From: Gammaproteobacteria bacterium
GTDB lineage: Bacteria > Pseudomonadota > Gammaproteobacteria > DSM-16500
Reading direction: 5' to 3'
Length of the DNA stretch: 64,000 nt
Assembly: GCA_031291255.1 (NCBI GenBank)
Contig: JARLJN010000071.1
Coordinates: 7,625 to 71,624 of the forward strand
Under the pieces are notes generated by a model that was not told where the DNA came from, made no database searches, and saw nothing but the letters and a program-made list of their open reading frames with translations. Below, piece by piece: positions 51,723 through 58,217 of this stretch. How positions within the stretch are numbered: position 1 is the stretch's first letter; each line of letters opens with the position of its first letter. The position numbers and the translations under genes are program-made.

Positions 51723-53903
51723 TTAAAACCCACTTTGCTCAATTAATAATTTCTTTATTTTATATATCACTCTGTATGCATATGAATGTGCCTCTGTTTT
51801 TAACACAACGTCGCCTCTTAGAATTTGATTAATAATAGTAGGTTGTTGAGTCGTCAGTAATACACGGTACACTATATCAACCGGCACAAATTTACCTTCT
51901 TCTGTCGTATAAGTCGCAATCTCTCCACCTAGCTCACTCACATTGAAACAAGGTGTTTCTGCGTAGACATTAGCATTTTTATCTTGTTTTAATTCTTGAG
52001 ACAAATTGCAATTAAGTTCATTTGAGTTGAGTACTTCGATTGAAGAAACAGTAACAGGAATCTTTGAGTAACTCAGTTGGGTAGGGTAGAAATAGCCGGT
52101 TAATTTATTTTGAATAAGATGCCTATCGATTTGGTGCACATAAGCTTCTACTATAAGTTCATTAGGTTGAATCACATCGCCTAATAATTCGTTTTTCATT
52201 ACAACATTACCTTGCTTTAGATCTGACGCCAGCTCCTTAATAACACCATCAAATGGGACTTTTAATGTAAGTGTTTGAGCTAATGCATAAAGTGTATCAT
52301 ATTTCGCTTTTTCTCTATTAATTTCTGATAACAGTACGTTTTTTTGGTGTGAAAATTTTTCATTCACAGAGGCTCTTCGTAATTCCGCAATGGATTTCAT
52401 ATAATCAAGGTAAACCTTTTCTAAATCATTATGAATTATTTGTGATTTTATAATGATAATAGGTTGCTCTGCTTTAACTAGGCTACCTGGTTTTGGCGGA
52501 ATATTTGCAATAATGCCTTCTTCAGGTGCAATTAAAAACCTGTGTGAGTAACTGATGGTGGCAGGAAGAGTAATTGTTTGCTTAACGGGTGTGATAAAAA
52601 TAAGTAATAGTATTGCAGCTGTTGATGTGGTGATTATCGTGTTTACATTCCAACTGAATTTTTCTTTTAATTTAATCCAAGTATGTATTTCTGTAACAAA
52701 GGGTCCTAACATAAAATAATAAAGTTCAACTACAAATAACATAATACCAATTATCTTAACGAAGAAATGGTAAACCAATACCGCAATTCCTGCATACAAT
52801 ACGAATCGATATATCCAAGTTGTTAATGAATAAATGACTAATATATTATGCATATGTGAACTAAATTTTTCGGGTGGTGGATCTTGCCAGCCGAATAACC
52901 AACGACGAATTTGCCAGCGTGTTAAAGCAAATGCACGTGATTGCAGATTTGGCATCTTTAAAAAATCTGCAAAAACATAATATCCATCAAAGCGCATGAA
53001 TGGGCTTACATTAATGAGAACGCTTGCAACCCAATTAACAGCAACTGCGACGTAACAAATTGCTTGTAAAGTCGTATTGTGAGTATTGCACCATATGAGT
53101 GCTGCTATAATAGTTACGTAAGTTTCGACCCACATTCCTGCGAGTGCTATACGCATTCGTGCTTTACTATTCAAGGACCAACTTAATGTAGTATCAGTAT
53201 AAAGTACGGGCCAAAATACAAGAAAAGCAACGCCTAATGAAGGCACTGGAACGCCATACCTTTTGCACATGTAGGCATGACCTAATTCATGAAATAATTT
53301 TGTTACCACAAAAACAACGAGATAGATAAACAAACCCTGTAATGTAAAAATGCTAGAGAATGTGTGAGAAAATGTTTCCCATTGCATGCTAATTTGATAT
53401 AGCGCTATGATTCCTAAGAGAGTCATCACTATTAATGTTGTACGGCTAAATAAAAAATCACCTATTACTTTTGTTTTATCTAATAACTTATCCGGATGGA
53501 ATAGAGGTATTCTGAAAAATAAATAATAATTAATTAACCAATGAAAAGGATTATCATTTTTAAATATTTTTTGTTCTTTTGCACTTTCGTGTATTTGGTA
53601 ACCACTTTGTTTGAATAGAAAATTATTTTTTAAAAAATTAACCATGCTTTCTATATCTTGCATGTCCACATGCAGCGTGGTTTCCTGATTAACCGATTCA
53701 ATGATAGCTTCTGCTGTTCCAAGATCCCATCGGCTCAATAATTCATATTCGACCCAACCTATGATAAAAAATTTATTTCTGCCAGCATCATGAATCATCC
53801 ATTGGGGTTTTCCTTCTAAATCATAATCGCTAAAGGATATATGAATGCCACGTCTTAATAGGGGTAATTTAGTAGAAGAAGAGCTATTTGAGTTGTCTGA
53901 CAT
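51723..53903 (-). CDS. site-2-protease (M50) family polytopic membrane protein fused to a C-terminal membrane-fusion-protein-like periplasmic domain
   Basis: HELGH at 53277-53291. NVSPFMRFDG (the S2P NxxPxxxxDG motif) at 52983-53012. Multiple TMs. C-terminal lipoyl/hairpin/barrel pattern (GSLVKAEQPIIIIKS ... coiled coil ... KVPFDGVIKELASDLKQGNVV). The cytoplasmic N-terminal ~100 aa have a PqqD/RRE-like look (tentative). Confidence 0.8.
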   Translation of the reverse strand: MSDNSNSSSSTKLPLLRRGIHISFSDYDLEGKPQWMIHDAGRNKFFIIGWVEYELLSRWDLGTAEAIIESVNQETTLHVDMQDIESMVNFLKNNFLFKQSGYQIHESAKEQKIFKNDNPFHWLINYYLFFRIPLFHPDKLLDKTKVIGDFLFSRTTLIVMTLLGIIALYQISMQWETFSHTFSSIFTLQGLFIYLVVFVVTKLFHELGHAYMCKRYGVPVPSLGVAFLVFWPVLYTDTTLSWSLNSKARMRIALAGMWVETYVTIIAALIWCNTHNTTLQAICYVAVAVNWVASVLINVSPFMRFDGYYVFADFLKMPNLQSRAFALTRWQIRRWLFGWQDPPPEKFSSHMHNILVIYSLTTWIYRFVLYAGIAVLVYHFFVKIIGIMLFVVELYYFMLGPFVTEIHTWIKLKEKFSWNVNTIITTSTAAILLLIFITPVKQTITLPATISYSHRFLIAPEEGIIANIPPKPGSLVKAEQPIIIIKSQIIHNDLEKVYLDYMKSIAELRRASVNEKFSHQKNVLLSEINREKAKYDTLYALAQTLTLKVPFDGVIKELASDLKQGNVVMKNELLGDVIQPNELIVEAYVHQIDRHLIQNKLTGYFYPTQLSYSKIPVTVSSIEVLNSNELNCNLSQELKQDKNANVYAETPCFNVSELGGEIATYTTEEGKFVPVDIVYRVLLTTQQPTIINQILRGDVVLKTEAHSYAYRVIYKIKKLLIEQSGF

Positions 53904-53919
53904 AACGCTCCTTTACCTA

Positions 53920-56176: not shown

Positions 56177-56264
56177 CCTATCTAGGTACCCGTTATCTTA
56201 ATTATATACCTAATTAGGGTGTAATAGTGGCAATTTCTTCTGTGTATTTAGAGTGATAAGGTCA

Positions 56265-58217
56265 TTATGCAAGCCATTTAACATTGTTTGTTTTTCTGAC
56301 CCACGCAGATGCTTCCTGGAATTTTTTAGGGAGTTGTTTCATGTCTGCTTTAGCCTCATGTGCTGTTTTATAATGACCGATGGTCAGTATGTACCAATCA
56401 TTTCCATTATGTTTTGTTTGGCCATAATAACTATTTTGTTTGATAGGAAGTTTGGATTGTAAGTTTAGAATATCCGATAAGTGATAGCTTCCAAAAATCT
56501 GCACCGTATAAGGTGATGAAGTTAAGTCTGGCGTAGTAGACGCTTTCTGTGTGGGTGCTGTCAATTTAGTGGATGCCATTATTTTTTGAGTTGGTATCTT
56601 TTGCTTTTTAATATTAGTTATCGCAATTTTATGAACGTTCGTTTTTTTCAAAAACTTTTCAGATTTTGTTGCAACAGTAAGATGTTGGGTATTGTTAGTT
56701 TTATTAAATAATGTTGCGTATGTATTATCTATATATTTATTGAAATCTAATACTTTTTGAAGCGCAAAATTATCTTTTATTAATTTTGTGAGTTCAGGAA
56801 TAGATTTATTTTCAACATCGACAGGCAAGATGTCAGAACCAGTAGAAAGATATAATTCACCTAATGCTGTAGATAAATCCGATAGCAATAGATCTTCATC
56901 CATTCTGCTGGTTAAAGCATGTAATTTTGCAAGAATAACCTGTTGATTGCTTGCTAGCGATGCCAGTTCACGATTGTGATTTAACGTATATAATGCTTCT
57001 GCATTTTCAGTTTGCTTATGTGCAATAGCATATTCTTCACTGAGAGTTTGATAATGCCAATAAGCATAACGTGTTTCAGTGAGTACAGTAATTGTGAGCG
57101 CCATTCTTTTTAATTTTTCATATTTTACTTGTATCTTAGCTGTAGTATAAGTTGTAGGTAATGAAGCTAAATTGAGTAAGTTCCAGGCTACATCCATAGA
57201 GCGATCTATCCACAGACGGTTAATCAAATATTTATTACTGTTATAGTTCCATCCTTCATTCAAGGTAATGCCTGGAAGAGCCTGTAATATAGCTGTTTTA
57301 ACGCCAAATTCAGCTATTCTTTTTTGGTATTCCTGCCCGCGTAATTCAGGACGTGTGGTTAATGAGATGGCATCTAATTTTTTAAAATCTAAATTTTTTA
57401 AATTTTGCGCATGCGTTAAAGCAGCAGGAGGCCGCAGTAAAATAATTTTTTGATCTGGCGGTAAGTCGAGTAAATGTCGTAGATCTAATATTGCCTTGTC
57501 GTATTTATATTTCAGTTGTACGAGTCGTCTATTCCCTTCAAGAAGGGCAGCTTGATAATTTAAAATATTTTCTTGAGGAATGGTTTTATCGGCTACAGCG
57601 AGAACTAATCTTTCTTTTGATTGATTGAGCAAGTGTTGAAATTCTCGAGTGCTAGTCATTAATTGTTGCGCGTTATAGGCGCTCCAATAAGCGACTAAAA
57701 CATCTTGTGTTAATGTTTGTACTTGTTTGCGACCTTCTTCTTCTGCAATTAAAATTCTTTCACTTTGTTGTCTGGCACGTACATAACCTAAACCAAAATC
57801 TAAGATATTCCAGCTTAATGCGCCGCGAGCACTGCGTAACGTTTGAGGTGTAGAGTTTAACACATCTGTAATTTGGCCCGTCGTGGTCGTTCCGAAACTA
57901 GACATTGCATTATTACGACTATAAAGTGATCCTGACGTATTAAAAGCAGGAAACATGGTGAATTCAGCCACGTTCAATTGGCCAGCTTGTAGAGCGTAAT
58001 TCACTAATTTAATTCGGTAATCGAGATTATATTTTAAGCTGCGGGCTAACGCTTCGTAGTAGTCTATTTTTTTTGGAAGATTTTTTTGGGGATCAAATAA
58101 TTCTTTAATGTCTTGCTGCGCTTCAGAATAACGGGTTTCCACAGAAATGGGATTGGATTTTAAACTGCAAGCAGTCAACAAACTAATAATGCAAAAAATT
58201 AATCCCTTTTTGATCAT
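56265..58217 (-). CDS. TolC-family outer-membrane lipoprotein with a C-terminal SPOR (peptidoglycan-binding) domain
   Basis: The ATG at 58217 follows AAGGA. Lipobox LLTAC. Two OEP repeats. The last ~85 aa (YTVQIFGSY...NGNDWYILTIGHYKTAHEAKADMKQLPKKFQEASAWVRK) align by eye with the DamX/FtsN SPOR domain. Confidence 0.85.
   Translation of the reverse strand: MIKKGLIFCIISLLTACSLKSNPISVETRYSEAQQDIKELFDPQKNLPKKIDYYEALARSLKYNLDYRIKLVNYALQAGQLNVAEFTMFPAFNTSGSLYSRNNAMSSFGTTTTGQITDVLNSTPQTLRSARGALSWNILDFGLGYVRARQQSERILIAEEEGRKQVQTLTQDVLVAYWSAYNAQQLMTSTREFQHLLNQSKERLVLAVADKTIPQENILNYQAALLEGNRRLVQLKYKYDKAILDLRHLLDLPPDQKIILLRPPAALTHAQNLKNLDFKKLDAISLTTRPELRGQEYQKRIAEFGVKTAILQALPGITLNEGWNYNSNKYLINRLWIDRSMDVAWNLLNLASLPTTYTTAKIQVKYEKLKRMALTITVLTETRYAYWHYQTLSEEYAIAHKQTENAEALYTLNHNRELASLASNQQVILAKLHALTSRMDEDLLLSDLSTALGELYLSTGSDILPVDVENKSIPELTKLIKDNFALQKVLDFNKYIDNTYATLFNKTNNTQHLTVATKSEKFLKKTNVHKIAITNIKKQKIPTQKIMASTKLTAPTQKASTTPDLTSSPYTVQIFGSYHLSDILNLQSKLPIKQNSYYGQTKHNGNDWYILTIGHYKTAHEAKADMKQLPKKFQEASAWVRKTNNVKWLA

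Follow-up and report, generated by a model that had tools for sequence, protein, structure and literature searches.

A conserved TolC, adaptor and intramembrane metalloprotease gene module next to giant proteins with an N-terminal leader: a candidate export or processing system

Several described systems bring together a TolC channel, a membrane-fusion protein (MFP) and a large or leader-bearing cargo. In type 1 secretion by peptidase-containing ABC transporters (PCAT), for example CvaAB-TolC for colicin V, the cargo is a small peptide with a double-glycine N-terminal leader, the cytoplasm-facing leader peptidase is a C39 cysteine protease built into the ABC exporter, and the duct consists of an MFP plus TolC. 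In classical type 1 secretion of giant RTX adhesins (HlyBD-TolC, LapEBC-LapA, SiiCDF-SiiE) a giant, repetitive Ig/cadherin-like adhesin without a Sec signal is encoded next to TolC and MFP genes, and in the LapG/LapD system retention or release of LapA depends on N-terminal cleavage by a periplasmic, calcium-dependent cysteine protease. Among the S2P/M50 intramembrane metalloproteases, SpoIVFB and the RiPP enzymes (EpeP/YydH, the daptide protease) remove an N-terminal pro- or leader sequence from a small, non-membrane substrate, pro-sigma-K in the case of SpoIVFB, and EpeP is thought to both cleave and export its peptide (PMC10885120). None of these proteases is fused to an MFP or linked to TolC.

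We examined a 64,000-nucleotide stretch of DNA (hereafter the window) from a member of the Gammaproteobacteria (assembly GCA_031291255.1, contig JARLJN010000071.1), in which the original prediction had singled out four tightly packed genes as a candidate protease-coupled, envelope-spanning export system without an ABC, RND or MFS energiser. The four minus-strand open reading frames were confirmed at 56265-58238, 55268-56176, 53920-55278 and 51723-53903, separated by an 88-nt gap, an 11-nt overlap and a 16-nt gap, as had been claimed, and the claimed domains were confirmed as well. The likely cargo, however, had been missed. None of the three findings that were named as refuting the prediction was made: the 726-aa protein is an M50/S2P with an MFP-like C-terminus, orthologous clusters do not carry a linked ABC, RND or MFS pump, and literature searches returned no functional description of the gene set.

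The first gene (56265..58217, minus strand; the frame extends to a GTG at 58238, while the ATG at 58217 gives MIKKGLIFCIISLLTAC) encodes a TolC-family outer-membrane factor with a visible lipobox, LLTAC. Profile searches with Pfam gave OEP at E=3.7e-24 and a C-terminal SPOR domain at E=6.8e-10 (residues 574-648). The SPOR tail, and hence any septal peptidoglycan anchoring, is specific to the Legionellales/Coxiellaceae copies. The second gene (55268..56176, minus strand) encodes a 302-aa periplasmic adaptor with one N-terminal hydrophobic anchor (residues 26-44, from hydropathy), which matched HlyD_D23 (1.9e-17), HlyD_3 (1.1e-16), Biotin_lipoyl_2 (1.8e-9) and NCBIfam RND_mfp (116 bits, above its cut-off of 94.9).

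The third gene (53920..55278, minus strand; 452 aa) encodes a GAF-like cytoplasmic domain (about residues 1-171), one transmembrane helix (about 189-207) and an MFP (HlyD_3 4.8e-14, HlyD_D23 2.2e-7). The GAF-like assignment holds at the level of the family: the window copy has no Pfam hit, but 8 of 25 orthologous N-terminal domains hit Pfam GAF, the best at 1.4e-6. The AlphaFold model (pLDDT 87) shows an alpha/beta domain at 1-171, and its MFP part matches MacA, ZneB and MexA with probability 1.0.

The fourth gene (51723..53903, minus strand) encodes a 726-aa fusion of a cytoplasmic beta3-alpha3 (RRE/winged-helix-like) domain at about 20-93, a 7-TM site-2-protease core and a periplasmic membrane-fusion domain at about 440-726. 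Pfam Peptidase_M50 scored 29.6 bits (gathering cut-off 27.2) and HlyD_3 gave 6.4e-10, while the M. jannaschii S2P structure 3b4r was matched with E=0.002. HELGH (205-209) and N298, P301, D306 and G307 of the NxxPxxxxDG motif are invariant in 52 diverse homologues. In the AlphaFold model (pLDDT 86) the C-terminal part matches MacA, AcrA and MexA with probability 1.0 by Foldseek. Hydropathy indicates an N-in/C-out topology, and the active site is predicted near the cytoplasmic face. The PqqD hint in the original prediction is supported by predicted topology only; by sequence, only 1 of 30 members reaches E=0.045. The NCBIfam daptide_HExxH model aligns over residues 43-395 and scores 131.7 bits, below its cut-off of 300, so the protein is not a member of the daptide family.

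The likely cargo is encoded by a giant gene transcribed divergently from the TolC gene (58548..64000, plus strand), of which at least 1,817 codons are seen before it runs off the window. The candidate cargo contains DUF4347 (58926..59420, plus strand; residues 127-291, Pfam 4.4e-51), PA14 and cadherin/Ig-like domains (Cadherin_5, Big_9) and has no hydrophobic segment in 1,817 aa, and thus no hydrophobic signal peptide. It begins with a leader (58548..58640, plus strand) in which a basic n-region (KKRKQK) is followed by the LEPR-type motif ALEPRMVYDAS, LEPRMVYDA occupying 58608-58634. NCBIfam LEPR-8K is the only family hit to the leader; the window scores 12.8 bits, below the cut-off of 17, whereas the orthologue in a locus of 58% identity (L003) scores 23.0, a planctomycete giant 22.5 and the Marinomonas giant 18.4.

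To determine whether the module and the giant belong together, we compared orthologous loci. The order TolC, MFP, GAF-MFP, S2P-MFP is kept in 44-46 of 52 assessable loci (those with at least 6 kb upstream) from different species of Proteobacteria, Desulfobacterota and Nitrospirota, which is far beyond chance; the MFP is present in 45 of the 52, and the GAF-MFP lies directly upstream of the S2P gene in 46. Of 50 compact modules, 39 have an ORF of at least 900 aa within 1.5 kb, and the exceptions mostly sit at contig ends. In L003 the giant, of 4,952 aa, is also divergent. A few loci (L041, L043 and L047), on the other hand, have only GAF-MFP and S2P-MFP, with no TolC or giant within 10 kb. All 24 module-adjacent giants whose N-terminus is visible start with a basic stretch plus A-L-E-[PQS]-R-[IMF]-[ML]-F-D-[GA]-A, with one false hit of the motif in about 1.3 Mb, and the 30 residues before the motif average 5.1 K+R against 1.4 D+E. 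DUF4347 itself is not universal among these giants, being absent from those of Marinomonas and Pseudomonas, and it also occurs without leader or module: four leaderless DUF4347 proteins taken as controls have no module nearby. What is more, a planctomycete LEPR-XLL giant lies next to GAF-MFP, MFP and M50-MFP.

No ABC, RND or MFS gene is conserved within 10 kb of the module. Only 12 of 85 loci have any ABC ATPase within 10 kb, and never in a fixed position. E. coli IncF plasmids carry just five genes (giant, TolC, MFP, MFP and S2P-MFP) between IS elements, and 24 of 5,426 complete E. coli genomes have this island. The module-linked giants also lack RTX repeats, with 0-2 chance matches against 15 in a control. 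In the window, the S2P gene is convergent with a gene (50247..51722, plus strand) for a membrane-anchored GGDEF-EAL protein (EAL 1.7e-36, GGDEF 6.3e-22), the two stop codons abutting. Both signature motifs of this protein are degenerate, with no GG[DE]EF, ExLxR or DDFGTG, and relatives lie next to the module only in the Legionellales-type loci L003, L006 and L007.

The locus resembles PCAT secretion in having a leader on the candidate cargo, a peptidase predicted to face the cytoplasm within an inner-membrane component, and an inferred MFP plus TolC duct, but the peptidase is an S2P/M50 metalloprotease fused to an MFP, no ATPase is linked, the leader is LEPR-type and the cargo is thousands of residues long. 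In contrast to the classical secretion of RTX adhesins, the conserved signal is N-terminal, and there are three MFP paralogues, one carrying a protease and one a GAF domain. Compared with LapG/LapD, the protease is an intramembrane enzyme, and the degenerate GGDEF-EAL protein lacks a periplasmic domain and is lineage-specific.

We favour, with a probability of roughly 0.55, a model in which the four genes and the giant gene form one unit, a dedicated, leader-dependent machine for export and processing of a giant surface protein. In this model the leader, lying N-in as S2P substrates do, is captured in the cytoplasm by the RRE-like domain of the S2P-MFP, and the polypeptide behind it is fed into a duct built from the three MFPs (probably a hetero-oligomer), which have alpha-hairpins, and the TolC trimer. 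The S2P would cut the leader at or near the Pro/Gly-containing motif, acting as the signal peptidase of the system either early, in maturation, or late, in release from the cell. The GAF domain and, in Legionellales, the degenerate GGDEF-EAL protein could gate the process, and the SPOR tail could brace the channel on peptidoglycan. Leader cleavage and its coupling to transport are inferred from sequence and predicted structure, without experimental evidence. No energy source has been identified for moving 1,500-5,000+ residues across the inner membrane; co-translational N-first threading, an extracellular folding ratchet, proton-motive force or an unlinked ATPase are candidates. The giants also carry a conserved C-terminal tag, G[KR]xSLxEQL, about 27-49 residues from the end of at least 25 of them, and C-terminal signals are the hallmark of ABC-driven type 1 secretion.

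This tag, together with a report of a C-terminal RTX domain in a Vibrio LEPR-XLL giant (PMC10868602), leaves open the possibility, which we consider unlikely, of a Lap-like arrangement. The giant would be exported C-terminus first by an unlinked ABC-type system, and the module would only tether the leader through its own TolC/MFP duct and release the adhesin by S2P cleavage under second-messenger control, as the GAF domain and the degenerate, LapD-like neighbour might suggest. The absence of RTX repeats from module-linked giants, the lack of a conserved ABC gene nearby or on the mobile E. coli island, and the presence of a TolC and three MFPs, more than a tether needs, argue against it, and no LapG-type cysteine protease was seen. 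It is more doubtful still that the S2P acts at the other end, shedding the giant by cleaving a C-terminal anchor or tag while the leader serves only for targeting and is kept or removed by another enzyme. Nitrospira giants do end in a hydrophobic helix plus a basic tail resembling a membrane anchor, and S2Ps classically cut transmembrane segments. However, most giants have no C-terminal hydrophobic helix, the normal N-in orientation of S2P substrates fits the leader and not a C-terminal N-out anchor, and the beta3-alpha3 domain suits binding of a leader peptide.

An ordinary tripartite efflux or peptide (RiPP or bacteriocin) exporter, with its pump or small precursor encoded elsewhere or missed and the giant an unrelated neighbour, seems improbable. 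KEGG and JGI name the protease after YydH, a peptide-processing M50, the sub-threshold daptide match points the same way, and a complete ABC-type tripartite system lies 1.8 kb away in the window. That system, however, has its own MFP and OMF and is not conserved beside the module elsewhere, the giant is the conserved neighbour in at least four phyla, the leader motif was found only on giants (the false hit noted above aside), and the E. coli island has no room for other genes. Least likely is an RseP-type signalling device releasing a transcription factor in response to envelope cues, the alternative raised in the original prediction in the form of regulated proteolysis. Apart from S2P family membership and a sigma-70 gene 5 kb downstream in one locus, nothing speaks for it: no sigma or anti-sigma gene is conserved next to the module, there is no PDZ domain, and fusion to an MFP and linkage to TolC have no place in such a pathway.

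The favoured interpretation of the original prediction, cleavage of a cargo leader coupled to passage through a TolC duct, is supported and gains a concrete candidate cargo. The conservation of a TolC channel and three adaptors, one fused to an intramembrane metalloprotease, without a pump and beside a giant surface protein with a matching N-terminal leader, points to an undescribed, widespread way of exporting or processing giant bacterial proteins.

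The four open reading frames of the module lie on the minus strand at 56265-58238 (with an ATG at 58217), 55268-56176, 53920-55278 and 51723-53903. As the original prediction described, they are separated by an 88-nt gap, an 11-nt overlap and a 16-nt gap. Pfam searches identified an OEP domain (E = 3.7e-24) and a C-terminal SPOR domain (6.8e-10) in the first protein, HlyD_D23, HlyD_3 and Biotin_lipoyl_2 in the second, and HlyD_3 and HlyD_D23 on the C-terminal two thirds of the third. The fourth protein contains Peptidase_M50 (29.6 bits, gathering cut-off 27.2) and HlyD_3 (6.4e-10). 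NCBIfam adds a match of the fourth protein to the daptide intramembrane metalloprotease over residues 43-395, but at 131.7 bits this is below the cut-off of 300. The only PDB sequence match of its first 440 residues is the M. jannaschii S2P (3b4r, E = 0.002). No C39 peptidase domain was found on any of the four proteins by Pfam or NCBIfam.

To examine the two unusual proteins in more detail, we used AlphaFold models. The model of the 726-aa protein, built from 52 diverse homologues, has a mean pLDDT of 86 and shows an N-terminal unit of three strands and three helices (E20-27, E33-39, E44-48, H50-57, H64-74, H81-93), a helical membrane core, and a C-terminal part that Foldseek matches to MacA, AcrA and MexA with probability 1.0. 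The predicted N-terminal unit has the topology of RRE/PqqD-type winged-helix leader-binding domains, but by sequence this assignment is not established: only 1 of 30 members touches PqqD (PF05402), at E = 0.045, and a PDB profile search with this domain gave nothing meaningful. Hydropathy indicates seven membrane helices, with the N-terminus inside and the MFP part outside. HELGH (beginning at H205) is placed at the cytoplasmic end of helix 2, while N298, P301, D306 and G307 follow helix 4, and H205, E206, H209 and these four residues are invariant in the 52-sequence alignment. Among the most conserved stretches of the family is the motif [YH]YLFF[RK][IV]PL (residues 126-134, window region 53514-53528), located between the RRE-like domain and the first membrane helix and modelled as a strand (E129-135).

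The 452-aa protein is modelled (pLDDT 87) as a five-stranded alpha/beta domain (1-171), one membrane helix and an MFP. The copy in the window has no Pfam hit on its N-terminal domain. However, 8 of 25 orthologous N-terminal domains hit GAF (PF01590, best 1.4e-6) and 3 hit GAF_2, so the original description of this domain as GAF-like holds for the family. Foldseek with the whole models returned only MFP matches, and neither the RRE-like nor the GAF-like domain could be searched on its own.

The original prediction did not take into account the neighboring gene. No ORF is listed between 58.3 and 64 kb because a single frame is open from about 58,536 to the end of the window. It encodes at least 1,817 residues with DUF4347 (4.4e-51), PA14 and cadherin/Ig-like domains, contains no hydrophobic segment, and begins MKIKGEPKKRKQKYSSLKQALEPRMVYDAS. 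A homologue of the protease with 58% identity, on a 1.18-Mb contig (locus L003), shows the same layout: a divergent 4,952-aa DUF4347 protein, followed by TolC-SPOR, MFP, MFP, S2P-MFP and GGDEF-EAL genes. A promoter and terminator scan of the divergent intergenic region was at chance level, and no Rfam match was found anywhere in the window. On the other side of the module, at 50247-51722 (+), lies a membrane-anchored GGDEF-EAL protein that lacks the GG[DE]EF, ExLxR and DDFGTG motifs and is possibly a c-di-GMP receptor rather than an enzyme. Its stop codon abuts that of the convergent S2P gene, and relatives flank the module only in the Legionellales-type loci L003, L006 and L007.

The S2P-MFP fusion belongs to a large family, with at least 2,648 clusters at 50% identity (E<=1e-30) and at least 592 species. 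We retrieved 80 loci with 10-kb flanks, called ORFs and subjected them to all-against-all clustering. Only four clusters are widely conserved, and these are the four genes of the module. Among 52 loci with at least 6 kb upstream of the protease gene, tblastn placed the GAF-MFP directly upstream in 46, the MFP in 45 and the TolC in 44, all in the same order. Of 50 compact modules, 39 have an ORF of at least 900 aa within 1.5 kb, and most of the remaining 11 sit at contig ends. The giant gene lies upstream on the same strand in most Proteobacteria, is divergent in Legionellales and lies downstream in Nitrospira. Several module TolC proteins (L055:4562-6394; L086:22286-24205; L052; L085) are 610-640 aa long with C-terminal extensions. 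In Legionellales/Coxiellaceae the extension is SPOR, in a Geobacteraceae copy it gives a weak OmpA-like match (E = 8.7e-4, below cut-off) and the others are unassigned. A peptidoglycan-binding tail may be a recurrent theme.

An ABC ATPase occurs within 10 kb in only 12 of 85 loci and never in a fixed position, and no other transporter family forms a conserved cluster, although a transporter acting in trans cannot be excluded. In the window itself a complete ABC-type tripartite system is found 1.8 kb from the S2P gene, at 43552-49939 (+), and comprises an HlyD-family adaptor (293 aa), a fused double-ATPase plus ABC-2 permease (981 aa), an ABC-2 permease (366 aa) and an OMF lipoprotein (484 aa). 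We rejected this cluster as the missing pump, as it is complete on its own and is not conserved beside the module in other lineages. Further away, at 34971-43565 (+), is a 2,864-aa protein with GH94 supersandwich and catalytic domains and a glucoamylase-like domain, and between 6001 and 10000 the G+C content rises to 0.46-0.48, compared to about 0.36 for the rest of the window.

A motif scan of all loci detected [LV]ExR[ILMVF]xx[FY]D[GA] near the start of every module-adjacent giant whose N-terminus was in hand, that is, in 24 cases including the window and an Azospirillum chromid, with one false hit in about 1.3 Mb. As the scan hit only giants, no small leader-bearing ORF was found. The giant encoded on the E. 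coli plasmid starts MTTIKNRRLRPRAHRFALESRQLFDGAAL. The aligned leaders read A-L-E-[PQS]-R-[IMF]-[ML]-F-D-[GA]-A-[AL], where the E, R and D positions are fixed by the scan itself, and the 30 residues preceding the motif average 5.1 Lys+Arg against 1.4 Asp+Glu. The LEPR-XLL domain model of NCBIfam (NF012209, cut-off 17 bits) is the only hit for these N-termini, scoring 23.0 bits for the L003 orthologue, 22.5 for a planctomycete giant and 18.4 for Marinomonas, but only 12.8 (E = 0.07) for the leader in the window. Inspection of the N-termini of DUF4347 proteins (P0390-P0472) showed two leader subtypes, ...LEPRxMFDGA and ...LEPRxLLSA(D). The module-linked leaders form an ...FDGA subtype, distinct from the classical ...LLSA(D) subtype. 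Many DUF4347 proteins have no leader at all, and several of those carry RTX repeats. The passenger domains differ, with DUF4347 being absent from the Marinomonas and Pseudomonas giants. The leader, not the passenger, is therefore what goes with the module.

To test the specificity of this association, we examined DUF4347 proteins that start directly with the domain and lack a leader. In Acaryochloris, Phaeobacter, Rhodoferax and Accumulibacter these have no module within 10-15 kb. Two leader-bearing fragments lay at contig ends and were uninformative about neighbors, and a third continued beyond its locus. Conversely, in the planctomycete Mariniblastus sp. (L091:2963-11892) a DUF4347 giant with the classical leader (LENRILLSA) lies 1.6 kb from three genes encoding a GAF protein with an MFP part (673 aa), an MFP (311 aa) and an M50-MFP protein (752 aa). 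The latter aligns with the protease fusion of the window over residues 186-555 (26% identity, E = 3e-35). No TolC gene is present in the 10 kb examined.

A mobile, self-contained copy was found on IncF plasmids of E. coli and Citrobacter, where the unit consists of five genes flanked by ISKpn26 and IS1B (for example, L086, E. coli plasmid NZ_CP081687.1, 44829-64580). They encode a 4,459-aa "Ig-like domain-containing protein," a TolC family protein, an adaptor, and two "HlyD family" proteins, the second of which is the protease fusion. The three inner-membrane genes (MFP, GAF-MFP and S2P-MFP) occur at 99% identity or more in 24 of 5,426 complete E. coli genomes, mostly on plasmids, with 4 of the places being chromosomal.

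The giants have no RTX (GGxGxD) nonapeptide repeats, showing 0-2 chance matches each, compared to 15 in an RTX protein from one of the loci. At least 25 share a C-terminal tag, G[KR]xSLxEQL, located 16-71 (mostly 27-49) residues from the end (loci L013-L084; L086:21850-22209). The C-terminus of the window's own giant is outside the window, and a protein search returned only fragments of at most 693 aa, so that the C-termini of its closest giants could not be read. The Nitrospira giants (L008, L039 and L046, Nitrospirales) end instead in a hydrophobic helix followed by PAWxxFDPLPVL and a basic tail, resembling a C-terminal membrane anchor or sorting signal. In L008 two leader-bearing giants flank one module.

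These data allow us to address how the module might act on the giant protein. We infer that the leader binds the cytoplasmic domain of the S2P-MFP in the N-in orientation that S2P substrates have, that the chain behind it enters a duct of MFPs and TolC, and that the S2P cuts at or near the Pro/Gly-containing motif. Helix-breaking residues tend to favor cleavage by S2Ps, and SpoIVFB, which appears to remove an N-terminal pro-sequence from a non-membrane protein, would be a precedent. In addition, the M50 protease EpeP is thought to both cleave and export its peptide (PMC10885120). We assign a probability of roughly 0.55 to this overall explanation and are considerably more confident of the narrower claim that the giant is the client of the module. 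The reading favored in the original prediction, in which intramembrane cleavage of a cargo or leader is coupled to passage through a TolC duct, survived the tests set for it and is strengthened by the identification of the likely cargo and its leader. An N-terminal signal would allow export to begin during translation, which is attractive for proteins of thousands of residues and could, together with folding outside the cell, replace an ATPase, although this last step is speculation. A tentative extension, which we regard as possible but less likely than not, is a new class of envelope-spanning secretion system with no dedicated ATPase or pump, in which giants with an LEPR-type leader are threaded N-terminus first through three MFP paralogues and TolC, with the S2P as signal peptidase, and which is spread over Proteobacteria, Desulfobacterota, Nitrospirota and Planctomycetota and mobile on E. 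coli plasmids.

Of the alternatives, a Lap-like tether-and-release device fed by an unlinked ABC exporter is the strongest, though we consider it unlikely. It is favored by the C-terminal tag, the GAF domain, the degenerate GGDEF-EAL neighbor and a Vibrio LEPR giant reported with an RTX end, whereas the lack of RTX repeats and of any linked ABC, and the five-gene mobile island, count against it. Moreover, as read directly from the sequence, the lineage-specific GGDEF-EAL neighbor has one TM helix and no periplasmic domain as LapD would have, although no specific search for LapG elsewhere in the genome was made. Cleavage of the C-terminal end rather than the leader is more doubtful still, an ordinary efflux or peptide exporter with the giant as a bystander is improbable, and RIP signaling appears the least likely. 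Because the defining energizer of tripartite and type 1 systems was looked for and is not linked, we do not classify the module as a type 1 system. It would work like one in using a TolC/adaptor duct, and like a PCAT in pairing a leader with a built-in peptidase, but the leader is A-L-E-P-R-x-x-F-D-G-A rather than a double-glycine leader, and as far as our literature searches show the combination is undescribed.

We found no functional description of this gene set in the literature, and a survey of Legionella T1SS covers only ABC-based systems. A 2026 preprint notes "LEPRxLL" N-termini on the two giant proteins of Chlorobium chlorochromatii and a TolC gene between them, states that the proteins lack known transport signals, and proposes an unrelated set of genes for their export. 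How the largest bacterial proteins leave the cell is largely unknown when they lack Sec, RTX or autotransporter signals, and this locus links such a leader to a specific, widespread machine that, judged by its linked genes, breaks the rule that a TolC/adaptor duct is driven by an ABC, RND or MFS transporter. If our reading is right, the five-gene island on E. coli IncF plasmids would offer an immediately testable model, and thousands of annotations would be corrected, since PGAP calls the protease fusion "HlyD family efflux transporter periplasmic adaptor subunit" (JGI names it after YydH). It would also give S2P proteases a new role as a secretion signal peptidase.
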